NCBI RefSeq assembly: GCF_000143415.4
Contig: NW_003314294.1
Span: 1,391,812-1,455,811 of the forward strand
DNA: 64,000 bases
From: Selaginella moellendorffii
Taxonomy: Eukaryota; Plantae; Lycopodiophyta
Reading direction: 5' to 3'
The translations under genes were made by a program, and so were the position numbers. This document shows, piece after piece, positions 1,825 through 64,000 of the stretch. Position 1 is the stretch's first letter. Each line of letters starts with the position of its first letter. The notes beneath the pieces are model-generated. The model ran no database searches. It worked only from the letters and a program-made list of their open reading frames with translations, and had not been told where the DNA came from.

Positions 1825-3043
1825 TTGAAAGTGTCAGAAGGCCTGGAAAGTGAATACCATTCAAACCACTAATAATAAGAACATACAAGAAAAAGAGAGG
1901 AAACCTGAATGAGTCAATGATAAGTATTGCTCCCTGGAGTTTTGACTTGAGATCAGTGACGTCCCGCTCTCTTAAAAAAAAACACAAATCTTTTCCAGTC
2001 CAGCACATCATTGAAAGGAAGATCGTAATGGTCTGAGAGAATCACTGGTGTGACATGAAATGAAAGGTCAGGCAAGCACATAGTAGCACTTAGAAAGACA
2101 GACCTAGCATGTATCCGTAATGTATAGAGTCGATAATACATGCACTGTTGACTTGTAGCCGCCAGGACAAATGCAAATCTTGCTCTACAAAACTGCTTCT
2201 GGTACACTAGCTCTCCAGTGGCTCTGCTCATCCAGTTATTACTGATGGCTAGAACATTGTCATCTTCCCACAGCTTGGCTAAAACCACTCGAATCTTAGA
2301 ATTTCAATGACCAGCTCAGAATTCAAGAGTTGTTCTGCACAGAGCGAGGACCAAGAATTGCATAATGACTATCAAGAGTACCTGTTTTTGACGTTGTTTC
2401 CTCCTCTAGGCAAAGCGAATGGTTGCAAAATCTGAGGCATGGAGATGTCCTTGTCCTGCTTGGGGATGAAGTCTCCATTGTATCTGGGAGAACAAACCAC
2501 ACAGATCGAGTTCTTCACCAGGTTTGCAACTTTATTTGTGGCTCTTGCCCACGGGTTACAAAGACGTGATCTGCACCATATGTTCTGGGATACTTGGCGA
2601 TCAAGCCCTGGACAATATCTGCCATCGTTTCATAAGAAATGCCCTTCATTTTGTTCCATTTTGAGGTATGATAATCAGAAGAAGAAAATGTAAACATCAT
2701 ACTTTTCCTCACATCTTGTGGCACGAAATGTGGATGAAGAAGAAATGTGCCTTGTTCAGATTTTTTGTGATGAACTTGCTCTCTCTCAGGTTTTGGAAGA
2801 AATAACCTTTGCTAGTGTTCTTGCTTGTGATTTTCCATAGTGTTTGATAGTAAGCATTTGAATCACCGTCTGGATAAATGAAAATCTTGAACCGCTTCAA
2901 CATTTACTGATAGTTCTTGAAAACGGCAAAAGAGCGGAAAACTCCCATTCCCACACCTGTCTCCTCATCAATGTCAACTTTGAGCTCTTCTCCTTGTAAT
3001 CCCGTGGCTAATTCCTGTGCACTCAAATCTTCTACATTCTCCT
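1825..3043 (-). pseudogene. Inverted, degraded copy of the 3' part of the exostosin/GT47 gene (source about 29516-30930), introns retained
   Basis: ORF 2709-2903 MLKRFKIFIYPDGDSNAYYQT...SKGYFFQNLRESKF and ORF 1953-2288 VLAKLWEDDNVLAISNN...ILSDHYDLPFNDVLDWKRF match the intact gene. Stops and frameshifts are present, and the intron sequences also align. Confidence 0.9.
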
Positions 3044-3080
3044 CATCATATCTTCAATGACTTGTCAAGGCACTAGCTCG

Positions 3081-3772
3081 ACTCTTAAGTTTTTAGCTTC
3101 AAGCGTTTCAAGTTTTCTCTCCAGTGCTTGAATATCAGAGATTTTGTCATAGGAGACCACATCCGATACTTTATGAGCATCGACTTTAGTGCAGAAGAAA
3201 GAATTACACCAAAGGTGGCATTTCCAAGTAGAGACAGGACTCTTGTTTACTCTGGAGAAGCAAAAAAGTGTCAAAGAAACCATGGATGCTTTATTGAATA
3301 CCTCTTGGACGTGCTCTGTCTTTGTAATATCTATCCTTTTGCTACCCAAAGGACTTTAGGACTTCTTAACAAATACATGGGAGGGACTCAAAAGTCACAT
3401 TGTTTTCCGTAACATTGTGAATTTCTTTAATATTGCTCGGCGCTATGAAACAGACAAGAGCTTAAAGATCCCTAAAAGAACCATTCTAAAGAACTTACTT
3501 TGTGATGGATCATTAATTCATCCAAAAATCCTCCACAACAAAAAGAGGCAATTCCTGTTCTTCGCAATGCTCATCTGGCATTGGCAGTGATTCCGGATTC
3601 TTGTTCCAGCTACTGGTGCTAGAACAATCTGAATCGTAGCTATCCTACCATGTGACTTCCTCAAAAACGGGCTGATGGATGACTGGGCATCTTGGGCACA
3701 TTCTGAGTGAGACTAAACCACTTGAGACTCCTCCTTACCTCATCTTCTCCATGGAGAGGCTGCTAGAATGCA
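3081..3772 (-). pseudogene. Inverted, degraded copy of the 5' part of the SAS-4/CENPJ gene (source about 26212-26960)
   Basis: KVSDVVSYDKISDIQALERKLETLEAKNLRV versus KVPDVISHDKIPDTEALEKKLEVLEAENLRV in the intact gene. The nucleotide match includes introns. Confidence 0.88.
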
Positions 3773-19124: not shown

Positions 19125-22065
19125 ATGATTATCCCTTTCCAATGTAGAAAGCGGTGGCTTCTTGTGACTTTGTGTGCCTTCCTTATGCTCCAAAGCTTCG
19201 AGCCTGGTGCTGCATCCGTTGAAGAAGGTAATGAGCAAGCGTACAGATTCTGGTTCCTCAAATTTTCCTCCAGGGGACGAGCTGCGTTTCTTTAAGAGGA
19301 GTTTGGGAGATCCGGAAGTTTTGGAGAGCTGGAGGGAAGAAAGCGATCCATGCCGAAGCCGTTGGTATGGAGTCACTTGCTCAAACACCAGCAGCGTGAC
19401 TGAACTGTAAGGCTGTTTGTACTTATCAGTTTCCTGTTGAGCTTAGCTCGTCCTTGTTGCAGAGATCTGAGTAATCTACTTTTACAAGGCAGCTTGGCAT
19501 CAGGCACTTTTGCAAAACTTCCAGGCGTAACGAAGCTGTAAGTTTCAGACTTTGTAGAAAAAACTTCAGACTTTGTAGAAGAAAACTTCCTACTTTTGTC
19601 CTGCAGGGTTTTAGCTAACAATAGCTTCACAGGAGACATTCCAGATAGTTTATTTGGTCTGTCAAATCTCACTCACTTGTAAGTAAAATTTCTCTTTCCA
19701 TTTTGTTATCTCAGATTGTTTCTATCTACCAGAGATGTTTCGTACAACCTTTTCTCAGGAATGCTTGGTAGTGGATTTGAACATCTAACTAAACTACAGA
19801 TACTGTACGGTATCATTTCTCTAATCTTTCTCATCCTTAATTGATTCTCGTAGGTCCCTTACTGGAAACCCGTTTAATACGGGGACACAACTTGACTTCA
19901 GAGAGCTTATAGAGCTTGAATATGTGTAGGTGCCTCTCTTTTCTTTCCTACAATGTTTTCATGCATAAAATCATCTTGCTTCTCGTTCTTTTGATAGGCT
20001 GTTGGGTGGCTGTGGCTTTACACAAAGCCTTCCACCAGGAATTTTTCTGCTACCAAAACTATATGCTTTGTAAGTCTAAATTTTCTAAGCAATTTCTCAC
20101 CATTTGTTACTGCCTAGTAGGGACTTGGAAGGCAACTCGTTCAGTGGAGCACTGACTGATGAGATCCGGCAAACAACAAGTCCCTTGACCGTGTTGTAAG
20201 CGACTGAGTTCTCATGTATTGTGCATTTGAACTTATTTCTCTTTCAGGGGGCTTCAAAACAGTGGGATTTCTGTTGATCTCAACCCCACCACCATCCGCT
20301 ATTTCCAAAACCTCCGCTATCTGTAAGCACGAAACTAAAATCTTACCTCGTCGTCACCTTCTGAACTAAAATGCAGGTCCTTACCTGAAGACGTGATAAA
20401 ATATGTCCCTACTGTGCTTCAAGGAAGGTTGCCAAGGCAAGTGAAGATGAATCTCTTTGTGATGGTGCTAAATTTGTGGGTTAGGCAGTATCCAGAATTC
20501 TTTATGCATGTACGTAACATGGATCAAATGCGAAACTCCGTCCCACGCGAAACCGAAAGCTTCAGATGAACCAGCTCCTCCACCTGGAGCACCGAAAAGC
20601 AAAAACACCGCAGCTATTATAGGCGGTGTTGTCGGAGGGGCTGCATTTTTTATCGCAAGCTCTTGTCTGGCGATTTATTGCATACTAGCGAGGCGCCAGA
20701 AATGTGTAGTGACAGGTAACTTGCTGTTAATACTGTGTTCTGTTTGATCTTCTTTGTTTTTACCTTTCTCGCAGACTTTACTGTGAAGGCAGGATTGGAG
20801 CTAGAAGTTGTCACGAGTTCTCAATCTTTTGTCGTTGCTCACGCTTTCACTTATGCGGAACTCGAGCAAGCTACCGATAAATTTAACATGAGAAACCTGG
20901 TTGGGGAAGGCAGCTTTGGTCAAGTGTTTCGGGGGATCCTCACGAATGGCAAGGTGAGAAAAGTATATTTCATAGACAGCATGTTGGAGCTTCCAAAAGT
21001 TGGATGTTTTCAGGTGGTTGCTATCAAAAGAATGGATACATTTGCTGGTCAGTGCGCGGAGGCAGAGAAAGAGTTTCGTATCGAGGTTGATTTGCTTAGC
21101 CGTATGAACCATCCGCACCTGGTGAGGCTGTTTGGCTACTGTGCGGACGGGAGTCAAAGATTGATTGTCTACGAGTTCATGTCTAATGGTTCACTTGAGA
21201 GCTACTTTGCAGGTAATCTGCCGCTTCTTCTCTTGCTTTCTTTTTCTCAGACGTGATCTTTCCAGGTCGATGCTTATATAGGAGTGGATTCAAACTAGAT
21301 TTTCGGAGGCGACTGCTAATCTCTTTGGGTTGTGCCAAAGGCTTAGCTTTCCTGCACGCTGGAGGAGAGGATGGCGATCCTATTGTTCACCGCGACTTCA
21401 AGTCTTCAAACATTCTTCTCGATTCTTACTTCTCCGCTAAGGTAAGTAGCAATCATTCCATTTGCCTCGTTTCTTCCACTTACAAGTTTCTCTTAGATAT
21501 CCGACTTTGGATTTGCCAAGCTTCTTCAAAGGAACCAAAGCCATGCCAGCACCCGCGTGATTGGAACATTTGGCTACTTCGATCCACACTACACGGCAGT
21601 GAGTAATCTCTGCGAATTCCAATAGTAGTGTGTTGTGTTAACCCGAGTGCTATAACCTGGATCAGACCGGGCGACTCACCGTGAAAGCGGATGTGTACAG
21701 TTTCGGCGTGGTACTCTTGCAGCTACTCACTGGGAAGCCTGCGGTGGTTTCATTTGGAGGGGATGACGTTCCACAAAACATAGTGTCTTGGGTGAGTTAT
21801 GTTAATTCTCTTCCCATGAACTTTGGAGAGGTGAGCTCTCGGAACTTTGCAGGCGGAGCCTTGTCTCAATGACAAGAGAAAGCTCAGGAGGATTTTGGAC
21901 AAAGATTTGGGCTCTACTTACCCACCAAAGTGTGCTCACAAGCTCGCTCTTTTGGCATCGTGCTGCCTGAGAGAGAACGCGGAGGCGAGGCCAAGCATGG
22001 CTCAGTGCGTACAAACGATCGAAGAAATTCTCGTGGAGTGCGCAATGCACCTCGAAAACGTGTAA
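19125..22065 (+). CDS. LRR receptor-like Ser/Thr kinase (multi-exon)
   Basis: Signal peptide [22 protein letters not shown]; [22 protein letters not shown]; single-LRR exons; [28 protein letters not shown]; [48 protein letters not shown]. The 3' end is tentative. Confidence 0.9.
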
Positions 22066-26150: not shown

Positions 26151-28508
26151 ATGGATGGGCGATCGTCGCCTTCTTCCTCGCCCTGGGCGCCTGTGATCTG
26201 CAGCTCGCCACTGCATTCTGGCGGCCTCTCCATGGAGAATCCGTTCGAGATGTTCGACGAGGTGGGGAGGAGTCTCAAGTGGTTTAGTCTCTCTCGGAAT
26301 GCGCCCGACGCCCCGGTCGTCCATCGGCCCGTTCTTGAGGAAGTCTCATCGCAGGATAGCTACGATTCGGATTGTTCTAGCACCAGTAGCTGGAACAAGA
26401 ATCCGGAATCGCTGGCGATGCCGGACGAGCATTGCGAAGAACAGGAATCGTCTGTTTCAGAGCCTCTTCGATGTAGAGATGAATTGGTGATCCATCACAA
26501 GGTAAGTCATGTAGAATGGCTCTTTTACTGCTCTTTAAACTCTTTTCTGTTTCAGAGCCCCGAGCCAAAAATCGAAGAAATTTACGATGAACCTTGTGTT
26601 AAGGAAGACATTGAGACTGTGAGTCCCTCCCATATATTTGTTAAGAAGTCCTAAAGTCCTTTGTGTAGCAGGAGGATCGATATTACAAAGACGAGCACGT
26701 CCAAGAGGTATTCGATAAAGCGTCTATGGTTTCTTTGACGCTTCTTTGCTTCTCCAGAGTAAGCGAGAGTCCTGTCTTTACTCGCAAATGCCACCTCCGG
26801 TGGAATCGGACAAGGATCCAGTTTCTGGATTAGTGCGTTCTTTCTTCCGCACTAAACTCGATGCTCGTAAAGTTCCGGATGTGATCTCTCACGACAAAAT
26901 CCCTGATACTGAAGCGTTGGAGAAGAAACTTGAAGTGCTCGAAGCTGAAAACTTAAGAGTGAAGAAAGAGAGCCAGCGCCTTATCAAGTTATTGAAGGTA
27001 TGGAAAGGTTCTGTGACCATCACGTGTCTGATCTCGTGCTGGCATTTTTCAGGAAAAGGAGGACGACTGTGCACGCTTTACTCAAGATAAGGCTGCATGG
27101 GAGAAACAGAGTGTGTCGAGCATTCAAGCATTTTGCTCTGAAAAAGAAGAGCTTGTAAGTGACGCATACTGTTACTTGTGCTTTGCATTGAAATGTATTG
27201 CAGCTCAAGGAACTCAAGCGGGAAAAGCGTTTGCTAGAAAAACGCTTTCAAGCCATGTCGCAGCTTCCGAATTCGCTTCCCAACAAGTCCGAGCGAAAGG
27301 AAATTGCTGATTTGAAAGCCAAGCTAATTGACGTGCATGAAGAGCATTTGAAGAAGGAAGCTCGCCTGCGGCTGACGGTACCATCCATGACTACACTCTT
27401 TTCTGTCACTGGCTTACTTTACTCTTACAGAATATCAGGCTTCGGAAGCTTGTGAAGGAGATGTCGGCCCGGCTAAACGAGAAAAAAGAGGAGGTATAAC
27501 TTTTCTCTGGCTACAAGCTAAGCCAGCTACTGATTGTTTTCCTCGTTTTGCTAGATCAAACGATATGAACGGCTGTTACAGGATTGGGATGTTCAAGAGG
27601 AGAAAGAGAAGCTGGAGAAGTCAGAAATAGTTCCTGGCTGCAAAACTATCAAGAAGATTGAATGCTTATCAAGCGAAAGGGCAGCTGTTGGATGTAGGAT
27701 CACAGGTGCTTTGTTTTATCAACGTCCTGACGGTCGTGCAAAGCAGAAGAAGGAAGGTGCCAGCAAGGACTCCTCAATACCGGCCTGTGGCAATAAGATA
27801 AAAGCTGCAAGCAACCCAAGCACGACTGAAAAAACTTGCACTTCTATTGTAGATGTATCAAGTGATGCAGTGGATTCAGCAAGTGACAAAAACCGCGCTA
27901 CATCGATATGTAAGGAAAAGTCTTCCAGTGAACCAGGAACGGAGGACGGCGCGTCCATGGACGGAACAGTGGTCGATGAGCTCATCACTGATCATGAATC
28001 TGGTAAAACAGCTGGTTGCGACTTCTTCAACTTTTTTTCTGATGTTTGTCATTTTTCTGTTGTAGGTTCAGACGTGCTTTTTGAGGACAAAACGAGAAGC
28101 AAGGAGAATACATGTAGAGAGAATGGCATTCGGGGAGCACAGAGAAGATCGCTGGTTTTCACGGATGGTACTCGAGAAGAAGTAAGTTTTCTGTTTGGCT
28201 TATTGAAACCTTACAAATATGATACCAGGAGTATCAAGACGGCCTTGCGTGTCTTTACTTTCCGAATGGAGATATCAAGAACTCTCTTGCAGATGGTACT
28301 ACGGAATATTACTACTCGGAAATCGATACATGGCACACCACGAAGCCTGATGGCGTCGAGATATTTTACTTCCCTCACAACCAGGTGAGTTAGCTTGCTC
28401 AGAGTAGCGTCTTAGGCTTAATTCAGTTTGTTCCAGATCGAAGAGCACTGGCCAGATGGACACAAAAGGATTATATTTCCAGATGGAACATCCACAGTTG
28501 AGTCCTAG
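26151..28508 (+). CDS. SAS4: Centriole protein SAS-4/CPAP/CENPJ homologue (coiled coil + C-terminal TCP10 G-box)
   Basis: Coiled-coil exons LKELKREKRLLEK..ERKEIADLKAKL..KKEARLRLT. The last exons translate YFPNGDIKNSLADGTTEYYYSEIDTWHTTKPDGVEIFYFPHNQIEEHWPDGHKRIIFPDG, the Tcp10_C repeats. Confidence 0.85.
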
Positions 28509-28994
28509 TTGTTGCATCAACTCCTCAATAAAAAAGGTTAGTTCTTATTCATTTCTGGCTGTCTACCGAATTGAAAGCTTTTTTGTTTCCATGCACCGGT
28601 TAGAACACTACTGCTGCCGCCGCACCTAGAAGTCCATTGTTTGTTATAGAAAGCTGGGCTGATCTGATGCAAGATCACTGGCGTCGTCATGATTGCAACT
28701 GCTGCACTATTCACTACCAAGACAACGATTTGCTACTGGAGAAGAATCGTTGGGTCAAGCCTATCGCGGTGGACAGAAGATGACGGGCTACCGACTTGTA
28801 AGGGATTCATCTCCCATAAGCTTCAGATTTCTGTTAAAACGGGACACACCACCCAGGTACAAACCTTCAATCGCAAGAGCTCATCTGAGTCGTTTGTGTT
28901 TCAGGTATCCACGGATAAAGTCGAGCCACGTTATGTGGAAGGCTGGGATATAAGGTTCCCAAGACGGTAGCTCAGGCCGGGCAAGAAGGCAACC

Positions 28995-30985
28995 ATGTCG
29001 TCGTCTTCCGGTTCGACGGGTAACTCCCTGCTGAGGATCGCCATGCCGGTAGCGTCTTCTCTCATTCTTGCTTACTATGTCTTCACATTGCCCATGTCGT
29101 TCATGGGAGGAGGGGGCAGTGGGGATGTCAGGAGTGAAATCACAGGGAATTTGCAAGTTCCGGTTCAGACCAAGGTGGAGGTTTCGGTTGCTCCTCCGGT
29201 ATCTATAGCTCTGGCCGCTCCAAGGCAAGCCAAGGAAACGCCCAAGTCGAGCAAGGGACCTGCATTGGAGGACAAGGCAAGCAAAGATCGGGAAGAAGCA
29301 GTTCCCAAGCTCAAGAGCTCGGCACCCAAGAAGACGGCAGGCACGAATTCTCCTCCACCGACAGAGCCAAGGCTTAAAGATCCGGAATTGCCGTTGAAGA
29401 AGCCAGCGGCATCTCAGGATTTAGACGAAAAGGACGCTGCCAGCAGCACAGATCCGGTCCCTATTCCAGATGACATGGAAACCAAGGTGGATGCGCGTCG
29501 CACAGAAGCGAAGAAGGAGAATGTAGAGGATTTGAGTACGCAGGAATTAGCCACTCAAGAGGATTTAACAGGAGAAGAGCTCGGAGTTGACATTGATGAG
29601 GAGACAGGTGTGGGAACGGGAGTTTTCCACTCTTTTGCCATTTTCAAGAAGAATTATCAGCAAATGTTGAAGAGGTTCAAGATTTTCATCTATCCAGACG
29701 GTGATCCAAATACTTACTATCAAACACCACGGAAAATCACAGGCAAATATGCTAGCGAAGGTTATTTCTTCCAAAACCTGCGAGAGAGCAAGTTCGTCAC
29801 CAAAAATCCGAACAAGGCTCATCTCTTCTTCATCCCCATCTCGTGCCACAAGATGCGAGGAAAGGTACCATGTTTACATTTTTTTCTTCTATTGCTGGAG
29901 ATTATCTTACCTCAAACTGGAACAAAATGCAGGGAATTTCTTACGAGAAGATGGCGGATATTGTCCAGGAATACGTGGAAGGCCTGATCGTCAAGTATCC
30001 ATATTGGAACAGGACGCTCGGTGCAGACCACTTCTTTGTAACCTGTCATGACGTCGGGGCGAGAGCCACAAACAAAGTTGCAAACCTGGTCAAGAACTCG
30101 ATACGTGTGGTGTGTTCTCCCAGCTACAATGGAGATTTCATCCCCCACAAGGACATCGCCATGCCTCAGGTTTTGCAACCATTCGCTTTACCTCGAGGAG
30201 GAAACGACGTCAGAAACAGGTACTCTTGATATTCATTCAACCATGTATGCACTTCCTGGTCCTCACCCTGCGCAGAACAATTCTTGGATTCTGGGCCGGT
30301 CATCGAAATTCTAAGATCCGAGTGGTTTTAGCCAAGCTGTGGGAAGAGGACGATGTTCTAGCCATCAGTAATAACCGGATCAGCAGAGCCACTGGAGAGC
30401 TTGTGTACCAGAAGCAGTTTTATAGGAGCAAATTTTGCATTTGTCCTGGCGGCTCACAAGTCAACAGCGCACGCATCGTCGACTCTATACATTACGGATG
30501 CGTGCCAGGTCTTTCTTTCTAAGTGCTACCATGTGCTCGCCTGACCTCGCGTTTCATGTCACACCAGTGATTCTCTCAGATCATTACGATCTTCCTTTCA
30601 ACGATGTGCTGGACTGGAAAAGATTCGCGTTGCTTTTAAGAGAGCGGGACGTCGGCGATCTTAAGTTGAAGCTCCAATCTGTCNNNNNNNNNNNNNNNNN
30701 NNNNNNNNNNNNNNNNNNNNNNNNNNNNNNNNNNNNNNNNNNNNNNNNNNNNNNNNNNNNNNNNNNNNNNNNNNNNNNNNNNNTACTTATCGTTGCACAG
30801 GGGACTCGTTGAGGTTGTTTTTCTTTTCTTTCTTTCTTTTTTCTTCTCGTGTTCTTATTGCCAGCCTTTTTCGACAGGTTCAAGATAGATTTGAATGGCA
30901 TACACCGCCCAGGCCTTATGACGCCTTCCACATGGTGGTGTACGAGTTGTGGTTAAGGCACTTCACCGTGCAATACAAGAAATGA
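28995..30985 (+). CDS. Exostosin family glycosyltransferase (GT47), type II membrane protein
   Basis: N-terminal TM and long stem; FKIFIYPDGD..YASEGYFF; YPYWNRTLGADHFFVTCHD; SKFCICPGG..GCVP; YDAFHMVVYELWLR. Contains a 100-N gap. Confidence 0.93.
30684..30783. other. Assembly gap (100 N) inside an exostosin exon
   Basis: Run of N. Confidence 1.
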
Positions 30986-37759: not shown

Positions 37760-40700
37760 ACACCAGCTACAGGAGGCAACACCCAAGCCCACTTGATGCC
37801 TGGGCTAACTCAGCCTATAGCCTACCCGAGGCCATGCAGGCCGGTTTGCTGGCATACCAGCCCGCCCCCAACAGCCATAGCTAGCCCATGCCGAGTGCTT
37901 GGGCGAGTGCCCGGCCTGAGCACCTAGCATGGGTGAGGCTGTGCATGGCAGTTCACCAGCGTGCCAGCCTGCCCCGCACCACCATGGCTGGCCCATGTGG
38001 AGTGCTTGGGCAAGTGCCCGGCCTAGGCACTTGGCACTGGCGAGGCCGTGTGGGGCGGTTCGCCGGTGTACTGGCCCGCCCCGCACAGCCATGGCCAGCC
38101 CACATAGAGTGCTTAGGCAAGTGCTTGGCCCGGGCACTTGGCATTGGTGAGGCCGTGCGGGGTGGTTCGCAGGCATACTGGCCCGCCCCGCACAGCCATG
38201 GCTGGCCTGCGCAGAGTGCTTGGGTGAGTGCCCGGTCTGAGCACTTGGTGCGGGCAAGGCCGTGCGGGGCAGTTCGCCGGCATACGGGCCTGCCCTACAC
38301 AGCCATGGCTGGCCCATGCGGAGTGCCCGGCCAAGTGCCTCAATTGGGCAACTGGCGCAGGTGAGGCCGTGCGGGGCAGTTCCCGGCGTACCGGCCCGCG
38401 CGGAGTGCTTGCGCGAGTGCCCCGCCCGGCCACTTGGTGCTGGCAAGGAATGATTGGTGATTCTGGAATTGTCACATACTCCTTTCCATCTCTTTGGCAC
38501 CGGTCCCATCCCAGCGAAAGGTGGGGAGAGTACCCATGAGGCTTGCGTAAGGCCACGATGTTCCGAAATGTAGTCCCAAAGTCCCAAATGGTGAAAGGGA
38601 AGAGGAGCAGTCCTCTAGTGTAGTGACCAAGGATACGGTCACATGGTGAGGAAGTCCCAAAGGATAGTGGGACTTAGAGGTTGGGCTTGCGGGCCTTGAT
38701 CTAGTGGCAGTGTTGGCGAACACGGCCATAGACAGAAAGGGACTTGGTGAGGATTGAAAAGGAGATATCGGGGAAGGCTATTCCCCATGTCTACGGGTTT
38801 TCTAAGGATGTTAAGGAGTGGATCTGGGATGACCACTCATGGACAAATGGCCTAGTCTTGGAGAGGCGGGATTGCAATGCAAGTGGTATTGGACCACCGA
38901 TGTGACCAAGGTGATTGGGCATGGCCTAGCATAACGAGCTGGCATGTTGGTGGTGCCTTGGGGTGTCGGTCATGAGACCGGACACATGGAGCACTTGGAC
39001 CAAGTGCAAAGGTTGAGTGGCATGGGTGCCATTCTCGGGGCTAGCAAGCCCCAAGTCCTGAGTGGGACTTGTGGAGGCTGTGAATGAGACTCCTCCAAGT
39101 GGTCGGAGGTGCGGTTAAGTGACTATAGTAGAATGGAAAAATTTAGTCGCTTACAACTTGGTATCGCAGCTGTTCCTTAGTTTGACTTTTATTGGTGCTC
39201 AAGTATATCACCACTAGCGTTGGCATCGGAAGGTCTGAGGAGTGGGCCTATCCTCGAGGAGTAGCAGGTCGGGAAGACATGGCTCTCCATTACAGTTCAT
39301 GTGTGAACTTGTAGACGAGGTGGTGGATAGAAAAGGGCCAATAATGGAACAACTTTGGGATCTTGGGAACAGTGCAAGGTTTTCCTCATTGAGTTGAGGA
39401 TATGATCCAGATGATCGTTTGACTCAACAAATTGGCTAATGTAGTTGTGGTAAACAACTATAGTTGGGATCACAGGGAAGATATAGACTCCCAAAATGAT
39501 AAAGGAGTCACAAGATTACCCTCATGTAGTTGAGGTTGGTGCTCATGAATGAGAGACCAGAAGTAATGACCGCGGGAGGTCAAATACGGAAAAGGACACC
39601 AGTCCTTGAAATGGTAGCTGGAGCTACCTCTAACAAATGCTGGAACAACCCGAGGAATTGGGGGTGTATTTAGAGGATGAGTTGGCATTCTCATCACATG
39701 GACAAGTGGTCCTAAGGGGTGAAAGGTTGCCCCTAAAGAACAAATTAAGTGTCGGAGTAACACTTGCAAAAGATGGTCCTTGTGAGTAGGACATGAATAC
39801 AAGGAGTTGTATTCCAATGAGCCAGCACCTCAAAAATAAGACCTCATAAGTCGTTGGATTAACAAAGTCCAAAAGGTTAAATGACTCCAATAGAGTCAAG
39901 GAATAATCCTAAGAGGTTAATGGAAGCATTTGGACTGAGGTGTGTGGTGCCCCATAAAGGATGAGGAGGATCTTGAGATCCAAGCATGAGAACAATGTGT
40001 ATCTCATTAATGGCAAAAGGTGCCATGCTAAAGTCGTGGGAAAGAGTTTCCCGGAAGAAAACAACTTTGACACAAAGTTATGCGTGAACTTTATGGTGCA
40101 GTGCTAGTGGATAATTGGCATAAGAGACAACCATATTGGTCTTGGCAAAAGACCTAGACACAAGTAAGAAGTGTCATAAAGGTAGGCTCGTGGAGCCAAT
40201 GGTGTGGAGACACCGAATGTGCCAAGGCGTGCTGCCTTGAGGTTAAGTTGGCGGGTTTATGAGAACCCTTTCCAAAGGAATCCCAATGGAAATGGGAATG
40301 GCATAGCCTAAGCTGGAAGGCATGCAATTAGAGTGTGGTGACCTAGATAATGGTGGAGGTGTGGAAGCACCAGCAATGAGTTATAGGACTTGACAACTAT
40401 GAGACAACTAAGCAAAAGGTGCAAAATAATTTGTTAAACTGGTAGAAGGTAACTACCTAAGACTTCTTATGGGGATAAGGAAGTTGGATATACCTTTATG
40501 GGGGATAAATTGCTTATGTTGCGATATAGTAAATCAATGTCGAAAATGGAATGCTCATTGTGAGAGAGGCCATTATTGGGACACTCAGACACTCTAGAAC
40601 ACCAAAAGGTGTTGTTTGGTGTCGTGAGGGCAATGGACAATGCCTAAGGGACAAAGTCCCTAGCGAATGATGGATAGGAAGTGTTATCCAAATGTCCAAG

Positions 40701-41730
40701 GTTGCGGAGACAAGAAAAGTCCGTCTACCCGAATTGGACAAAGCCAAAAGGGGATTTTGGCAAGGCTAGGGATGGGCATATAAAGGCCCATAAGTAGCAA
40801 CAGTAATCCTAGGGTATGGGATTACAAGGTGAGCAAACCCGGATTGAGGAACCACTCCTAGGCTGTCGGGTAGGTTCATCCCTATGAATACTTGCAAAAG
40901 CATGGTAGAAAGTGAGAAGCTATCTTCCTAGTCTGGAGGAAAATGACCGAAGGAAACGTATGAGGCCAAAATGCAAGTAGTAAAAGGATAGAACCGAACC
41001 ATAGGAATTGACAGGCATGACCAAGGGTGGTTAGCAAGTTGGGAGTGGAAAATCAAGTGGGTGCTCAAGCATGTTGTTACTAGCGACCAAGGTGCTATGG
41101 AGAGTCAAAAACATGGGATTGTCCATGTTAGACTATATGGCAATTGGAAAGCTTGTGAAAGGAGAGGCTTTAGCAAGCTAAAGGGACAGAGTTCCTTCGA
41201 AAGGTTCCCAAAGACAGTTCTAGGTAACTAGATACTTTGAAAGCCAAGTGTAAATGGTTCATAGAACGCGCGAAATCAGAGTGGTGTAGCAAAAGCGTGG
41301 TTTTGAAGTTTGCCATGAGGCTTGCCATACCGGGCCATTAGACTATGGTGTTTCGCCTCGGCGTCCCGAAGGAAGTGTTGCACCCAAGGCTTGGGATTTA
41401 GAGGGTCCCATGATCAAATCTTGTTGTACCAAGGGGTGTTAGGAACTTGGAGGCTTGGTGTGCTTGGCTGCTTGTGCCTGCGGGGAGTGTAGCCGAACCT
41501 TAAGTCCAGTCTAACCCGAGGAGGGGGATTGGGGGAGATTTGGGAATTCATGGATGGATGGCTAACACTCCATTGCTCGTGCAGTGAGTAACTGAAACCA
41601 AGTAGAACCAAGTAGGAGCTGGTACCATAGGCGGGAACCTTGGCAAGGGAACTTAGTAAAAGCCAAGGCAGTGTTAGACGGATAGACAAGGTAAACTGGC
41701 AAATTGGAAAGGAAAAATTTGTGGCTTACA
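37760..41730 (+). mobile_element. Decayed LTR element(s) nested in the MULE
   Basis: LTR end GCTTACA at 39155 followed by PBS TGGTATCGCAGC (39159-39170). 41330-41730 matches the 3' part of the LTR at 58130-58522. The left boundary is uncertain. Confidence 0.65.
37828..38445. repeat. 107-bp GC-rich tandem repeat, about 5.8 copies
   Basis: GAGGCC/GAGGCT/AAGGCC anchors at 37828, 37935, 38042, 38149, 38256 and 38363, each exactly 107 bp apart. Confidence 0.95.
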
Positions 41731-43616: not shown

Positions 43617-45331
43617 ATTTTCTAACACTATCGATGTTTATTCTCTATCAATAATATAAACTTATTATACCTTAGATAATTAATAAAAATATTTTAATAT
43701 TTCACTTTTTATTTCATATACTTGTGAGTGTTTTTTTTGCAATACTACCCATAGTATTTGTGAGTCTCCATTTTTGTCTTTACCATCTCAAAAAATATTT
43801 CATAGTAGTCTTTCAGGTGCATGATGTTGCAATGTGTTGCGAGAGCATATATACCATCATACTGATGATTGCTATTGTTTCCACCAAAAGCTAGAAAACA
43901 TATAAGGCATTTCTTGAAAGTCACAAAATTGCAATTTTCTAAAATAAGTAGGAAAACATTCTTTTTCACTCAATTTGTAGCGCCCTCTGTCATTGCATTT
44001 ATCTCCAATTCATGATCACTATATTCACTATCCTCTCTTTTTTTCTCTTGTGTGGTTTGGTTATATTGTGCAATGAAATAACTATTGCATCTTGTAACCT
44101 TTGAACACTGGGAAGAAAGATTGTGAGACTTAAAATTACCATTACTAGAACCTATAAACATTTCTATGTATTTCTCTTTCTTTGAATAAGAGAGTAAATA
44201 AAGATCCATAAATTCTAAATAGTATGCTATAACAAATCCTTCAAAAATGTATTCTAGAAAAGAACCAAGTCTCTCTATAACAAACTTACATTAACAGTTG
44301 TTTTTTTTTCCTTTCAAATAGTTATATAGCCTTATATAGAATCTTAATTCAAATTTAATTGACAAACTTGATATTTACTAGATAGAGTACAGATTTAAGG
44401 AAGTGACAAAAATACTCTTTTTGTAAACATTTTATTTTATGTTCTAAAAAATGTCGCTATCATTGCATGTAGTAAATATTTAAATTATTAGAACAAGAAG
44501 TGTCCTTTAGAACATTTTTATTTATATAATATATATAGAGTTATTAAATTATTAAGTTTGCCATAACTTTACAATTTTAAAGTTTATAATGTTTGTACTA
44601 AATTATAATTGAAAATTGAGCTCAACTCGTGAGCTCAACTCTTTAACTCGTGAGCTCAAGTATGGTCCACGCTCACACGTTTGGATTAAAAGCTTCAACT
44701 TGGACAGTCGAGAGTGGGAGTGCAACTCCCAATGAAGTGCTCAAAAATGAACATGAAACAAGTAAAGTGAGTCTCTAGAAAAGGGACATAAGAAGACCAA
44801 CACATGACATGTGGAAGTGTCGAAATGGACCCAGGATGGCATCTGAGATGGAGTCCAAGATGGAGTCCAAGGTGGAGTCTGAGATGGAACCAAGACCGAG
44901 TCCAAGTCCAAGTCCAAAACCAAGATCGAGACCAACTCTAAGTCCGAGTTTGAATACTAATACAAGATGTTGGGTGAGAGCCCATAGCGGTCATCCCAGG
45001 GGTGGTGGGGGGGTTGCAAGGGGTTCCAAAAGTATAGTAGGGAGAGTGTGGGGGTTAGACTTAGTCGGACTCAGTGGAGCCAATTTGGCCAGAAAAGGCC
45101 AATGTGACCCAGGAAGGCTATGCCCACGTGTTGGGTGATGATATTGTTAGGGCATGGCCATTGAGAGAGTAAGAGAGAGAAAAGGAATGTTCTGGTCCTC
45201 AAAATATTCCCCATCTTCCTTGTATAAAACCCTTGCCTCACAAGGGCAAGGGGGGCATTTTGTGAAGAGCATTGAAACATTTCTTGTGTTTGAGTGAGTG
45301 TTGGGGGAGGTGCCCCTCCTTCCCCAACAAA

Positions 45332-56321: not shown

Positions 56322-56660
56322 ATGGTGATTCTTTTGCCGCCTTCCTGCTGCGATTACCAATGCGACAGATGCATCGCCTTGCTCGCCGCCACAGCTGCTG
56401 CGGCATCGTCGACTCTTGCCACCTCCGCCACTCCTTCGATCGATCTTGTTGACACGAGCATCACCGATCGAGTGTTCTTCAATCTGGGGCTATGCCAGAG
56501 CAGTAACACGCCTGCGGGGGGCCGGCCGACGTGCAACGATTCTGATTTGCAGCCCCTTGGCCGTGTCGTGATTGGCCTCTATGGCAATCAAGTGCCACAC
56601 ACAACCCGATTGATCAAGGCCATGGCCACCGGCGCGGTGGGAAGCTCCTACCAAGGCATC
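56322..56660 (+). pseudogene. 5' fragment of a thylakoid-lumen cyclophilin (CYP28-like)
   Basis: DTSITDRVFFNLGLC...C..SDLQPLGRVVIGLYGNQVPHT..KAMATG..SSY. Similarity stops abruptly and the cyclophilin C-terminal half is absent. Confidence 0.7.
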
Positions 56661-57366: not shown

Positions 57367-58522
57367 TATAAGGAACCAACTCGCCGAGGTGTCGTAGGCT
57401 AAAGGAACCCCGAAAGCATGACCAAAATGACAAAGAGTTCATCGGATGGGACCAAGTCGAAGATCGAGTCCAAGACCGACTCTAGGACTGAGTTCGAGAT
57501 AGAGTCCGGAATCGAGTCCGAGACCGACTCGGGGACCGAGTTAGAGTCCGAGTTCAAGACCGAGTTCGAGACGGAGTCCGAGATCCGAAATTGGGCCGAA
57601 ATTGGGTCCGAGACCGAGTCCGAGGTCGAGTCCGAGGTCGGGTCCGAGATCGGGTCCGAGATCGAGTCCGAGATCGAGTCCGAGACCGAATCCGAAATCG
57701 GGTCCGAGATCGAGCCAGAGACTAAGTCCAAATACTAATACGGGTCAAGGGGTGAAAGCCCAAAGCGTGCGTCTCCCAGGGGGGGGGGGGGGGGGGGGCT
57801 GCAGGGGGTTCCAAAAGTATAGTAGGGATAGTGAGGTCCAGGAACCAGTTTAGAATGGACTCTCCAGTGGGGCTCCCAAACTGACTTGAGGTTGGGACTG
57901 GGACTGAGGGACCTTGGGTGGGAGTAAGCATGGACTTGGTTGGTGCCGGAGGGGCCATCCAAGGAAGTGCTCAAGAGCAGCTCCCACTCCCGAAAGGGAA
58001 ACCGATTGCGGTGCTCCTGGCTCATGTGGAGTGGTGCCCCACTTGAGTACCATGCGGCTCATTGGTCCTCGCCCTTCCTAGGGGCTTGGGCCTTCCTTCG
58101 GGATGGAAGTGGGGGGCGAGAGGTACCCATACTGGGCTGCTAGGCCACGGTGTTTCACCCCGGCGTCCCGAAGCAAGTGTTGCACTCAAGACTTGGGATT
58201 TAGAGGGTCCCATGATCAAGTCTTGTGGTACCAAAGGATGTTAGGAACCTGGAAGCTTGGTGTGCTTGGCTGCTTGTGCTTGCGGGGAGTGTAGCCGAAC
58301 CTTAAGTCCAGTCTAACCCAGGGAGGGGGATTAGGAGTGATTTGGGAATCTGTGGATGGATGGCTAACATTCCGTTGCTCGTGCAGTGAGTAGTTGAGAC
58401 CAAGTAGGAGCTGGTACCATAGGCGAGAACCTTGGCAAGGGAACTTAGCAAAAGCCAAGGCGGTGTTGGACGGATAGACGAGGTAAGCTGGCAAATTGGA
58501 AAGGAAAAATTTGTGGCTTACA
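57367..58522 (+). repeat. 5' LTR (1156 bp) with GAGTCC/GAGATC microrepeats and a G-run
   Basis: The first ~184 bp match 63747 onward with 7 mismatches. Ends GGCTTACA before the PBS. Confidence 0.93.
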
Positions 58523-61500
58523 ATTTGGTATCGGAGCCTTTATCTCAGTTCTAGCGAAGGATAGAGGCAGATTGCTGGGAGATGGCAAGGGCAGGGCGTA
58601 AGCGAACCCAGGCAGAGACGGAACCTCCACCAGAGCTGGAGCCTCCGGTCGAACAAGATGCTATGGATGAGGAATCCTTGCATGAGGAGGACTCTAGTGA
58701 GGAAACTTCCAAACAGGAGTCCGGTGGCGAGGTTCGGTCGTCCAAGGCTCGATTGGATGTGCTAGAAGGACAGTTGGCACAGACCAATGCCCTGCTGGAA
58801 ACTCTCGTACGCAAGCTAAAGCGTGACGAGAGGCGGAAGAAAAAGAAAAAGACTGCGGATGCTGGCAGCGCAGAAGGTGCGGATCTTTCGGCCGGGACTG
58901 AGGCAAAACAAAACAAGGTTGAACAGACCAAAGTAGAATCAGTCCCTCAGGCAGTTCCGAAGTACAAACCAAAGCCCCCACCGGTCTTCAAGGGAGTGAA
59001 CGACTATAAAGTGGTGGAGGATTGGTTTTACGATATGGAGGACTACTTCCGAGCGTTGTGATTACCAAGCTCGGAGAAGGTCCCATGTGCAAAACCATAC
59101 TTGGCAGATAATGCCAAGTCTTGGTGGAGAACGACGGAGGCCAACGAAGGACCAGTGGCCACTTGGGACATGATGAAAGCGAGGATCCGCGCAACATACA
59201 TTCCTCCGAATGCCACTCTGCATCTGAGAGATGAGCTGAGTAGGCTGAAGCAGACTGGAACCATCCAGGAATATGTGAATGGGTTCATGGCAAAGAGGAT
59301 ACTTGTCACAGACATGGGGGATATGGATGTGTTCCATGCCTTCATATCAGGTTTGCAAACCTGGGCTCGCGGTGAGGTGATGCGGTGGAACCCGACCAAC
59401 TACAAGGAAGTGTTGGATGCGGCCATCAAGGTGCATTTCAACGATAACCTGCGAAAGGGGAACACGACGGGGTCGGGATCCACATTTAGCAAAGGGGCCA
59501 AACCAAGGGGAACGTATAGCAAGGGGAAATTCAAAAAGAGTTTCTCTAAGAATGAGTCCTCGGGGTTCCGGAAAGGCAAATCCGGTGGCCAGCGAGCGAG
59601 TATGTGGGGGAGTCAAGCAAAAAAAGACAAACCCACGGATAAGAAGGTCAAGTCATATAGCAGCGTGGGAAACAACGTATGCTACAACTGCGGCGAAGCG
59701 GGACACTTCTCGAGGGAATGTCCGTACCCGAAGAAGGCCAGAGCCAATATGGCCATCAAGTCGGGTGAAGTCCAAACTGAGGTATGTGATCCAGTCCCTA
59801 ACTCAAAGTTACTCATTACACGAGCAACTTTGGTAGAGAGTCGTTCGCGACATCTACTAGCACTCCGAGGGAAGCTCAGAGGTAGCTTTGTTAAGATCCT
59901 TATTGACACGGGTGCTTTGGATAATTTTGTGGCTGCAGACATAGTCCGGCAAGCCGGACTAACGGTGCAGTGGCTAGGCGAACCAAGGACTATAGAGTTT
60001 GTTCAAGGTAGCCAAAGCACCGATGAGGTACTTCGACAAGCGAGAGTCGAAGTGGGGACATGGAAAGTGGACATGGATTTCACCGTCTTGGACATGGCGG
60101 GATTTGACGTGATCTTCGGAATGGATTGGTTTAATCGGTTCGTGGTAGCCCTACATGGACAAGGTAGGAACCTTGTGGTATTGGCGAATGCCCAAGGAAG
60201 AAGATCTAGGGTGGAGGCCTAGGATCTAAAGGTAGGGCAAAGTAAGGCCAAAGAGTCATGCTTAAACCTGGTTTCCACGAGAGGACAACTCACTAAAGGA
60301 ACTAAGGCAGCCTTTTTGTGCTTACTCTCGGTGAAGAGTGACAAAAAGACAAGAACAGAAGAAGTACCTTTAGTGATCCAGCTGGTGCTGGACCAATTCC
60401 AGGATACCATGCCGGGGGAGCTACCGGCGGGGTTGCCCCCCGCACGACTGATAGAACATAAGATTGAGCTGGTCGAGGGTGCTGAGGCGGTGGTTCGTCC
60501 ACCCTATCGATTGAACGAAAAAGAACTCGCGGAGCTCAAGAGCCAACTAGAGGAGTTGGTGGACAAAGGGTATGTTAAGTTGAGCAAGTCGCCGTATGGG
60601 GCGCCGGTGCTATTTGTGAAAAAGAAAGATGGATCTATGCGCATGTGCATAGACTACCGGTTGCTCAACAAGTATACCAAGAAGAACAAGTACCCTTTGC
60701 CAAGGATCGAGGACCTGTTCGATGGCAAAATACTTCTCGAGGATTGACCTAAGGTCAGGATACTACCAGATCAGGGTAGCTGAGGAAGATGTCGAGAAGA
60801 CAACCTGTCGAATGAGGTATGGGAGCTTTGAGTTTCTGGTGATGCCCTTTGGGCTGTGCAATGCGTCGGCAACGTTTTCGGCGTTGATGAACCACATCTT
60901 TGTACCCTATCTGGATCACTTCGTGGTCGTCTATATCGACGATATCCTGATCTATAGCAAGACGCTAGAGGAGCATGCCGAACACTTGGCAAAGGTGTTT
61001 GAGAAACTAAGGGAACACAAATTGTATGCTAAAGAGAGCAAATGTGACTTTGCTCAACAAGAGGTAAAGTTTCTCGGGCATGTGGTGGGCCAGGACGGGC
61101 TCAAGGTGGACCTGGAGAAGGTCCAAGCGATCCAGGAATGAGAGCGACCTTCGAATGTACATGAGTTGAGGGCGTTCTTGGGGCTATGCAACTACTATCG
61201 AAAGTTTATCAGACACTATTCGAGAGTAGCCCTGCCCTTAACGGACCAAACAGGAAAAGGGAAGATGGTATGGATGGCGGAATGCGAGGCGGCATTCGTC
61301 CACCTCAAAGGGAAGTTGAGGAAGGCTCCGGTGTTGGCATTACCAGATTTTGGTAAGGACTTTGAGGTAGACACGGATGCTTCGGACTTTGCGTTGGGCG
61401 CAGTTTTGAAGCAAGACAACCATCCAGTAGCGTTCTTCTCGAAGAAGTTGGACAAGGCTCAACAGAAGTGGCCTGCCCATGAGAAGGAATTGTTTGCGGT

Positions 61501-62444
61501 GGTCAAGGCGCTCAAGGAGTGGCGACACTACCTTGGGAGACACTTCAAGGTTTACACGGACAATGTGGCAACGAAACACTTCTTGTCACAGCCCGACCTG
61601 AGAGGGAAACAAGGTCGGTGGGCCAATGCCTTAGCCGAGTTTGATTGCGAGATTCTGTACAAGCTTGGGAAGAGCAACATCGTGGCAGATGCGCTAAGTC
61701 GAAAAGCGAGCTTGAGGTTGGCGATCTCCAGCGCAACAGCAACCTTCTGGGACGATGTGCGGACAGCATATCAGAACGATGGTCTAGCACAAGAAGTGTT
61801 GTTGAGGAATCTGGAGGCACGGGAAGCTCACCAGAGAGGTGAGCTGCCGACGGAAGAGAAAACGGGCTATGCGGAACGCAACGGACTCATTTATTACAAG
61901 CAAACGAGGGTGTATGTTCCAGAAGGGGAACTAAGGAAGGTAGCCTTAGAAGAGTGTCATGACGGACCTCTTGCGGGACACGGCGGAGTGCCCAAGACGA
62001 TGGGCTTACTCAAGAGGAAGTACCATTAGTCAGATATGGCTAAGGACGTCCAAGACTATATAAAGACATGTCCAACATGTCAGCAGGTCAAAGCCGTGAC
62101 TAAGGCTGGTGGGGGCTTGTTGCAAAGCATCCCAATTCCAGATCGTCCGTGGAAATGTCTTACGATGGACTTCATCACGGGACTACCCCCAAGCGAGGGG
62201 TTCGATGCGATATTAGTGGTGGTGGATCAATTTTCGAAGATGGCACATTTCATACCCACCACAACGGATGTGGATGCGGAAGGTGTGGTGAAGCTGTTCT
62301 TCGAACAAGTAGTTCGAGTGCGGGGAAGGCCAGAAGAGATTATCTCAGATCGAGATAAGATCTTCACTAGTAGGTTCTGGAGGACCCTCCTGGAACAGTA
62401 TCGCACCAAGTTGAAATTCAGCACAGCCTATCACCCACAGACAG

Positions 62445-62491
62445 GTATAGGGTATTAAGTCAAGTTTGGTGGCCCTAACACTTCTTGACAG
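62445..62491 (+). other. Putative 47-bp GT-AG intron in the integrase core
   Basis: CAG|GTATAG...CTAAC (62475-62479)...CTTCTTGACAG|AC. Removal gives STAYHPQT-D-GQTERVN in frame. Confidence 0.88.
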
Positions 62492-62909
62492 ACGGACAAA
62501 CGGAAAGGGTGAATAGGCAGCTGGAGGATTATTTGCGATGCTATGTCTCGGGAGACCAGACCAATTGGGTAAGTCATTTGGGACTTGCAGAAATGTGTTA
62601 TAACAACTCACCACATTCGAGTATCGGGGTGAGTCCATGGGAAGTCATCAATGGGCGAGCTATTGAAGGTTCTGTGGAACTCGGCGTGGCCGAGTATCAT
62701 GGAGAGCTACCCGTAGTGGAGGCATTCACGGCGGAAAGACTCAACATTTGGAATCTAGTGAGGGATTCCTTGGAACGGGCTCAACAAAGGCAGACCAAGT
62801 ACGCGAACTTAAAGCGCCAGGATGTAGAGTTCCAAGCTGGGGAGAAGGTGTGGCTGAACACCAAGAACCTCAGGCTACCAAGTGGGATCAGCAGAAAGTT
62901 GACCCAAAG

Positions 62910-62961
62910 GTAAAAATGCATGTATTCCTGTAAATGAATTGATCTTGAGTTCCTTAAGCAG
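62910..62961 (+). other. Putative 52-bp GT-AG intron before the GPY/F motif
   Basis: AAG|GTAAAA...TTCCTTAAGCAG|GT. Removal gives SRKLTQ-R-FAGPYEI in frame. Confidence 0.88.
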
Positions 62962-63406
62962 GTTCGCGGGGCCTTATGAGATCGAGGCACGAATCGGTAA
63001 AGTGGCTTACCGACTCCGACTTCCTCCAGAGATGGGGAAGATGCACCCAGTGTTCCACGTGAACTTACTCAAGCCGTACTTTGAGGATCCGCTTCGCAAG
63101 GACTAAGTAAGACCCTTACCTGAGGTTATCCAAGGGGAAGAGGAATACGAAGTTGAGGCCATCCTCAATGCGCGCAAGAGCAAACGACAAGGACGCGAGG
63201 TGAGAGAGTTCCATGTGAAGTGGAAAGGATTTCCACACTGCGAAGCAACATGGGAACCGGAGAAGAACCTAGCGAACGCGCGAGATCTAGTGGAGGAATT
63301 TCTGCAAGGCAGAACTCTATGTACTTATGCAAAGTTCAATTAAAAATATCAATTTGCAAAGTTGAGCAAGTGGCATATGTTGGGACCCGAAGGAGCGCCG
63401 AAGGTA

Positions 63407-63725
63407 AGCTAATTAGCATGGGTTAGCTAGGTCGACCAGGCGTAGGGAGCTACGCCCGACTCCCTGCGGGGATGTCGAATCCGTAGACGTATTCTACGGA
63501 GGTTGGGTTCGAGTCCCAACCCCCTAGTAAAGCAAGGCTGGGTTCAAGTCCCGACCCCATACTAGGGCGTGGTGAGGGGAGGAGTATAGGGACACCTATA
63601 TTCCGTTGTCATGGGCTCTTGGCCGGGGAGGCTAACTTAGGCACACCGCTAAGTGGGGGGATGCCCCCGGAGACATGGTCAACAAGTTGTAGGATAAAAC
63701 GAGACGTTCGATGTGGGCATCGAAC
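63407..63725 (+). other. Multi-hairpin structured element in the retrotransposon 3' UTR
   Basis: About 11 adjacent inverted repeats, including two tRNA T-arm-like GGGTTC(G/A)AGTCCC loops. Confidence 0.7.
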
Positions 63726-63746
63726 TTCTTCTATGGGTGGTGGAGT

Positions 63747-64000
63747 TGTAAGGAACCAACTCGCCGAGGTGTCATAGGCTAAAGGAACCCTGAAAGCATG
63801 ACCAAAATGACAAAGAGTTCCTCGGATGGGACCAAGTCGAAGATCGAGTCCAAGACCGACTCTAGGACCGAGTTCGAGATAGAGTCCGGAATCGAGTCCG
63901 AGACCGACTCGGGGACTGAGTTCGAGTCCGAGACCGAGTTCGAGACGGAGTCTGAGATCCGAAATCGTGTCTGAGTTCGAGACGGAGTCTGAGATCCGAA
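63747..64000 (+). repeat. 3' LTR (partial, truncated by the window end)
   Basis: TGTAAGGAACCAACTCGCCGAGG after the PPT; matches 57367 onward. Confidence 0.95.

Follow-up and report, generated by a model that had tools for sequence, protein, structure and literature searches.

How can a retrotransposon that is copied from RNA keep introns that are removed from its RNA? Passage through an RNA intermediate is classically demonstrated by intron loss. The question is raised by an LTR element within the 64-kb stretch of Selaginella moellendorffii DNA analysed here (hereafter the window), in which the integrase gene is interrupted by two short inserts.

A Pfam scan of nine segments of this element gave matches in seven, in the order gag-PR-RT-RH-IN followed by a C-terminal chromodomain, which is the domain order of the chromoviruses (Ty3/gypsy). 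The scan ruled out Ty1/copia identity, since the integrase (IN) does not precede the reverse transcriptase (RT). Ginger-type DNA transposons with a gypsy-like integrase, which are known to contain introns, were also ruled out, as RT, RNase H, LTRs and a primer-binding site (PBS) were all found. The parts of the element, and a partial LTR of the same family located elsewhere in the window, are given below.

57367..58522, plus strand: 5' LTR of 1,156 bp, with a 12-bp tandem array, ending in CTTACA
57779-57798, plus strand: poly-G tract of 20 nt in the 5' LTR
58483..58548, plus strand: 66-nt GT..AG intron (PBS intron), covering 40 nt at the LTR's 3' end together with all of the PBS
58526..58538, plus strand: tRNA-Met-type PBS of 13 nt, recognised by its sequence
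58582..59781, plus strand: gag, 400 codons up to the donor, with retrotrans_gag and a CCHC knuckle
59782..59938, plus strand: alternative GT..AG intron of 157 nt, containing the protease DTG motif (59899-59916)
59939..62444, plus strand: remaining protease, RT, RNase H, integrase zinc finger and integrase core, as far as D1 (62168) and D2 (62348)
62445..62491, plus strand: integrase intron 1, 47 nt, with an in-frame TAA at 62456, located 5' of the catalytic Glu
62492..62909, plus strand: integrase exon, in which codon 62503 is the catalytic Glu
62910..62961, plus strand: integrase intron 2, 52 nt, with an in-frame TAA, directly 5' of the GPY motif
62962..63343, plus strand: GPY/SH3-like part and chromodomain (PF24626, PF22938, PF00385), with the normal stop at 63341-63343
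63032-63340, plus strand: ATG-initiated chromodomain stretch of 309 bp
63735..63745, plus strand: polypurine-tract-like run, likewise recognised by its sequence
63747..64000, plus strand: start of the 3' LTR, cut off by the end of the window
41325..41730, plus strand: incomplete LTR belonging to this family (identity of 88%), stopping at the LTR end and retaining the donor AAG/GTAAAC at 41691

A previous reading of this DNA (the sequence-only reading) had credited the element with both LTRs, a PBS and a polypurine tract (PPT). The 5' LTR, the PBS and a PPT-like run are indeed present, while the 3' LTR lies only partly in the window, and for this reason no target site duplication (TSD) can be read. 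The first 184 nt of the 5' LTR are 96.2% identical to the 3' LTR, and the element measures 7,536 bp, assuming that both LTRs are of the same length. The PBS presumably complements the end of tRNA-iMet. The window copy is dead, since it carries five in-frame stops (59059 in gag, 60220, 61139, 62027, and 63104 in the chromodomain part) and an 11-nt gap near 60723.

Several further features of the element and its surroundings were recorded. The 12-bp LTR array (57444-57762 and 63800-64000) differs in copy number between the two LTRs, and a similar array is present at 44842-45051; a GC-rich 107-bp tandem repeat of about four to five units lies at 37828-38399. A textbook branch point and acceptor motif is located within the LTR (58362-58386), with a counterpart near 41560 in the partial LTR; the motif is unused in the X15 and X17 contigs (see below) which cross it. 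A strong donor (AAG/GTAAGC) is followed by an AG 36 nt further on in the 3' untranslated part (63404-63439), where no contig is spliced. The segment just 5' of the 5' LTR (56440-56650) resembles a cyclophilin gene fragment.

The inserts in the integrase gene have the appearance described in the sequence-only reading. Both are of the form AG/GT...CAG (CAG/GTATAG...GACAG/ACG in intron 1, AAG/GTAAAA...AGCAG/GTT in intron 2), both are out of frame (lengths modulo 3 of 2 and 1, respectively), each introduces an in-frame TAA, and intron 1 contains a CTAAC branch-type motif at 62475. Local junction checks gave the peptides YHPQTDGQTER at site 1 and KLTQRFAGPY at site 2, in agreement with the claim that excision restores HPQTDGQTER and KLTQRFAGPY. 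The spacing between D2 and the catalytic Glu is 35 residues (D-D35-E) only when intron 1 is removed. The integrase therefore requires splicing, because unspliced RNA lacks the catalytic Glu of this triad; the prediction that such RNA encodes an integrase cut before this residue is borne out by the positions of the TAA (62456) and the Glu codon (62503).

By a crude estimate, the chance that both inserts would read GT..AG is at most 7e-4. All four introns of the element have GT..AG ends and are rich in T (a fraction of 0.29-0.35, versus 0.14-0.19 in their flanks), which are features of spliceosomal (U2-type) introns, and YTNAY motifs within them mark candidate branch points. The size-matched host introns to which the sequence-only reading had pointed (46 bp at 19228-19273; 52 bp at 28385-28436) are predicted to leave sensible junction peptides. 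The host DNA of the window also includes inverted duplicated segments (1935-3772 and 26212-30676) that are 77-84% identical and contain a GT47 glycosyltransferase gene.

As had been stated, neither site is interrupted in two related chromoviruses of the window (about 8280 and 7860; about 32650 and 32190). Among 270 integrase homologues, site 1 showed the strict continuous motif in 212 and a variant continuous motif in 14, with no motif in 44 and none ending at the motif; at site 2 the motif was continuous in 160 and absent from 110. When metagenomes were scanned for an intron located as at site 1, a single match turned up, by chance, within an unrelated 1,093-codon frame (L001 1-3448, minus strand; unbroken), which resembles an importin-7/8, and a scan of viral contigs gave none. 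With respect to the origin of the inserts, a direct repeat, GACAG (5 nt), flanks intron 1 (62440-62491), and AGGT is found at both ends of intron 2 (62908-62963); such end repeats would be the signatures expected of recent intron gain. A search of the 64-kb window for an introner-type repeat revealed no second copy of either intron, and an origin by tandem duplication or from a repeat was rejected, there being no match elsewhere in the window.

The element could be assigned to a named family through the published description of that family. SM1-Galahad (Novikov et al. 2012, PMC3350952), placed in the Galadriel/Galahad clade by an RT tree in the same paper, is described as being about 7.5 kb long, with LTRs of 1,076/1,146 bp, a run of 11-25 G and a 13-bp tRNA-Met PBS, and as comprising hundreds of copies, approximately 95% alike, none of them intact. 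Its multi-copy consensus has an ORF1 of 3,885 bp ending in the core integrase, an ORF2 of 316 bp, and an ORF3 of 309 bp encoding the chromodomain. The window element comes from the same host (a host exon in the window is 99% identical to a protein of S. moellendorffii, the next match reaching 71%), has a length of 7,536 bp, an LTR of 1,156 bp with 20 G, and a 13-nt tRNA-Met PBS at 58526-58538. Its frame from the ATG at 58582 to the TAA inside intron 1 measures 3,874 nt, which together with the 11 nt absent from this copy makes 3,885, exactly the published ORF1; its chromodomain ORF (63032-63340) equals the published ORF3 at 309 bp, and its middle ORF (62593-62910) has 318 bp, compared with 316 bp for ORF2. 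Because host, length, LTR size, poly-G, PBS, and ORF1 and ORF3 sizes agree, we take the window element to be a copy of SM1-Galahad. Protein searches recovered no member of the family (the best identities among the matches listed were 56% of 120 and 49% of 150 positions), nor was any found among the 13 candidates of a further protein search.

The agreement of the ORF1 and ORF3 sizes has another consequence: as judged from these lengths, the published consensus itself carries both integrase introns, unrecognised, with ORF1 stopping exactly at the TAA of intron 1. In the portion of that paper available to us, the 3' part was taken as a short ORF1 followed by two small ORFs and the four introns are undescribed; in its main text the strings "intron" and "splic" do not occur. 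The sister family SM2-Galahad, also present in hundreds of copies, is reported to be intact, with a single unbroken ORF of 1,577 aa (PMC3350952).

The genomic copies retain the introns. In X1, a run which we guess to be of DNA, 71,778 contigs lie on the element and all 30 bins are covered; the summed depth within intron 1 (577,244 at 62474) falls inside the range of the listed exon positions (about 481,000-1,211,000), and the bin with intron 2 shows no dip in depth. None of the 15 joints listed for this run matches an intron; at least 104 weaker joints were also counted, and rare intron-less copies are possible. In X4, which behaves like low-coverage DNA, one contig (25) runs unbroken across 62393-63344 at a depth of 23.4 with both integrase introns kept, and no joint occurs among 368 contigs. 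The dominant genomic form thus keeps both introns. Moreover, 46 X1 records pass from the LTR end at 58522 into sequences unlike one another (agreement of 0.38), which indicates many independent insertions. The inserts are therefore family-wide and not peculiar to one copy.

Evidence for splicing came from four RNA-type contig runs (X15, X17, X18 and X20), each from a different study; the kinds of run are guesses, contigs are not single molecules, and X17 may contain DNA. All joints were read as GT..AG after applying the stated register shift. X15 and X18 lack intron 1, which X17 and X20 retain. Intron 2 is absent from all three runs with a contig across it, namely X15, X18 and X20 (the X17 contig stops 5 nt beyond the intron 2 donor). 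The joints are of 47 and 52 nt in X18, 52 nt in X20 and 157 nt in X17, and contig 13 of X15 lacks both integrase introns. In X15, depth arithmetic leaves no unspliced contig across the PBS intron, intron 1 or intron 2, the bin depths being those expected from spliced RNA only. The raw-read RNA runs X22 and X23, each sampled to about 12/100, gave 38 and 13 reads on the element, too few for any joint. Sequences present in the DNA are thus precisely removed from RNA, as is the case for spliceosomal introns: intron 2 in three of the four contig runs, intron 1 in two, and the PBS and gag/PR introns in one each. That the integrase inserts are spliced, as the sequence-only reading had proposed, is thereby confirmed from two studies for intron 1 and three for intron 2, and we regard it as almost certain that these are genuine introns present throughout the family.

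The introns are not invariably removed together, because an X20 contig lost intron 2 and kept intron 1. This contig is chimeric: over 62411-63211 (depth of 59), a fragment of the integrase follows a foreign upstream sequence, and the element's own intron 2 is spliced. The sequence-only reading had further envisaged a switch, in which active integrase would be made with or without the GPY/F motif and the chromodomain. This idea found no support: intron 2 is out in 3/3 RNA-type runs crossing it, and no contig was observed that had lost intron 1 while retaining intron 2; the partly spliced form that did occur is the reverse of the one predicted.

Two other observations concern the transcripts. 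The spliced contigs of X15 and X18 end at 63295-63300 while the DNA continues, and an AATTAAA lies at the stop codon just after; these contig ends are a weak hint that the mRNA terminates upstream of the PPT. A piece of the LTR (57991-58347) runs at 58347 into an identical foreign sequence in X18, X22 and X23, and an expressed locus elsewhere in the genome thus contains part of the SM1-Galahad LTR.

Two splicing events which the sequence-only reading had missed lie further upstream. The first removes the primer site. Contig 9 of X15 joins 58480 to 58547 with a 2-nt AG ambiguity, which corresponds to removal of the 66-nt intron 58483-58548, and the depth of the bin (5.75) is that expected from spliced RNA only. 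This removal was seen in one contig of one run; X17 keeps the intron, and the X18 and X20 contigs do not cover it. The splice eliminates the LTR end and the PBS and touches no coding sequence. A candidate branch point (CTTAC, 58517) coincides with the LTR's terminus, and the donor is conserved in the second, partial LTR (41691). In the predicted RNA fold this donor pairs with the LTR end, to which we give no weight, the z-scores being only -0.8 to -2.0. In two further LTR elements of the window (11802, minus strand; 39160, plus strand) a pyrimidine-rich, acceptor-like AG stands 9-10 nt after the PBS, and in the latter element 39109-39114 offers possible donors. The intron over the primer site may have arisen before SM1-Galahad and be common to other lycophyte chromoviruses.

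The second event affects gag. An X17 joint of 59779 to 59937 (GT..AG at +2) corresponds to removal of 59782-59938. This 157-nt splice deletes the protease DTG motif and brings a stop one codon past the junction, yielding a Gag of 401 codons; loss of protease sequence with a frame ending just after Gag is the short-Gag arrangement of copia-type elements. The joint was seen in one study (X17), which holds both spliced and unspliced forms. In X15, contig 10 begins at 59937, exactly at the acceptor, and 59874-59936 is uncovered.

The claim that the family must replicate from unspliced RNA stands, and the question becomes how such RNA is set apart. The sequence-only reading had suggested selective packaging; the PBS intron offers a simpler gate. 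In the explanation that we consider probable, the introns are kept because spliced and unspliced SM1-Galahad RNAs do different jobs, with the primer site as the gate between them. Fully spliced RNA (class A) would be the message for Gag. RNA keeping only the 157-nt intron (class B) would be the Gag-Pol message, for which length arithmetic gives 1,557 codons, and no other class would supply active integrase with a chromodomain. Wholly unspliced RNA (class C) would be the genome, encoding a polyprotein with a dead integrase. Reverse transcription begins from a tRNA at the PBS (PMC12786077). Because 58483-58548 holds the PBS and the U5-end template, classes A and B would lack both and could not be primed by tRNA-Met; only class C would be reverse transcribed, and every intron would be inherited by the daughters. 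Such a gate would require tight coupling between splicing of the integrase introns and of the primer-site intron. Once present, it would make new pol introns cheap, and we propose that this is why two unrelated introns were gained in one integrase gene.

The gate is supported by X15, in which contig 9 lacks the PBS intron, contig 13 lacks the integrase introns and no unspliced contig is found there, as well as by the T-richness of all four introns relative to their flanks, by the retention of the integrase introns in the DNA form and the consensus, by the unbroken ORF of the sister SM2-Galahad (PMC3350952), and by the precedent of separate mRNA and genome pools in BARE1 (PMC3735527). Against it stand the single contig of a single run on which the PBS splice was seen, the X17 contigs that keep this intron, and the chimeric X20 fragment with intron 2 out and intron 1 kept; template switching between co-packaged RNAs could also bypass the gate. 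A fuller version, in which splicing runs the whole cycle (the PBS intron making mRNA uncopyable by design, the 157-nt intron setting the Gag-to-Pol ratio, and the gate having freed the integrase active site to gain introns), is one that we put forward tentatively, as having somewhat less than an even chance of being correct.

The single observation of the PBS splice, together with the X17 contigs unspliced at both the PBS intron and intron 1, also leaves room for a different explanation, namely that unspliced RNA is chosen by some other feature (an uncapped transcript class as in BARE, an intronic packaging signal, or nuclear routing) and that the PBS splice is incidental. In BARE1, as described, it is indeed the promoter, the cap and the R region that split the pools, and no PBS intron is involved. 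We nevertheless consider this unlikely, as the 66-nt intron is confined to the LTR end and the PBS without touching coding sequence, a second LTR retains its donor, and two other elements of the window have an acceptor-like AG 9-10 nt past their PBS.

Selection instead of a gate could maintain the introns if intron-less daughters arise and fail through poor expression or stronger silencing. Partial splicing does occur (X20), and the X1 joints listed are 15 of at least 119. However, failed daughters should then be numerous among hundreds of mostly dead copies, whereas both introns are present in the prevailing DNA form as well as in the published consensus and the X1 depth shows no dip, which makes this account improbable. 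Still more doubtful is the view that SM1-Galahad is integrase-defective and mobilised in trans by SM2-Galahad, its inserts being lesions that happen to be spliceable. Its attraction is that SM2-Galahad, with hundreds of copies, has a single ORF that is intact and that no intact SM1 copy was reported (PMC3350952), but this last statement arose because introns were read as breaks. Moreover, two unrelated inserts both splice precisely and restore the frame, the downstream exons still match the Pfam SH3 and chromodomain models, and mobilisation in trans leaves open why spliced RNA escapes copying. Finally, multiplication of intron-bearing copies as DNA, by segmental duplication from one master copy, gains from the lack of a readable TSD (the 3' LTR leaves the window) but is hardly credible given the 46 X1 records that leave the LTR end into unlike flanks and the hundreds of copies, about 95% alike, that have been reported (PMC3350952).

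SM1-Galahad makes an old question testable, namely how a retroelement parts the RNA that is translated from the RNA that is copied. With hundreds of copies and with introns in the catalytic domain of its integrase, this family breaks the rule that plant LTR elements are intron-free; a 2025 review, in the part available, describes these elements as generally without introns except for Ogre and EVADE (PMC12786077). It also presents a datable case of recent intron gain, with an intron-less sister family, two unrelated introns and short direct repeats at their ends. Other families reported to have "no intact copy" may likewise be intron-bearing elements misread by ORF-based annotation.

SM1-Galahad is thus a known family whose intron structure is without description in the literature searched. 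This full-text literature, which leaves most subscription journals outside, yielded among the papers listed no description of small introns inside an LTR-retrotransposon integrase or of introns in Galahad, and Galahad is named in only two relevant papers. An architecture of this type is absent from the accessible portions of PMC2864245, PMC7197481, PMC3315495, PMC7730604, PMC13547354 and PMC5718144, and of the preprints 10.1101/2020.02.20.956714 and 10.64898/2026.05.08.723830. Transcripts spliced within LTRs have been reported from maize in a 2026 preprint, with the PBS unmentioned in its available part.

The Gag-only splice has its closest counterparts in the Ty1/copia elements BARE1 of barley and EVADE of Arabidopsis, in which a small alternative intron after gag leads to a stop just behind Gag, as in SM1-Galahad (PMC3735527, PMC5580714). 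The EVADE intron removes the protease, like the 157-nt intron described here (PMC5580714), and in BARE1 the RNA to be translated and the RNA to be packaged form separate pools (PMC3735527). In both elements, however, Pol is made from unspliced RNA, whereas the integrase of SM1-Galahad needs splicing. Moreover, SM1-Galahad belongs to Ty3/gypsy, and conserved splicing was absent from the Arabidopsis Gypsy elements, according to the available text of Oberlin et al. (PMC5580714). Introns also survive retrotransposition in Penelope-like elements, among them one in the 5'-UTR at the boundary between repeat and body (PMC8557442), by a mechanism described as unknown; they have no LTR/integrase cycle and no tRNA PBS, both of which SM1-Galahad has.

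Ogre resembles SM1-Galahad in that a portion of Pol can be translated only after splicing, while the genomic copies retain the intron. As described, however, it has one intron of ~274 bp between two ORFs, whereas SM1-Galahad has two introns of 47-52 nt in the catalytic domain and a third that removes the PBS. In foamy viruses a major splice donor lies upstream of the PBS. These viruses make Pol from a subgenomic mRNA that has been spliced, while the unspliced RNA serves as the genome (PMC7828637), an arrangement similar to the one proposed here. Foamy viruses, however, remove a large coding region, whereas SM1-Galahad removes small, non-coding introns of host type from inside an enzyme gene.
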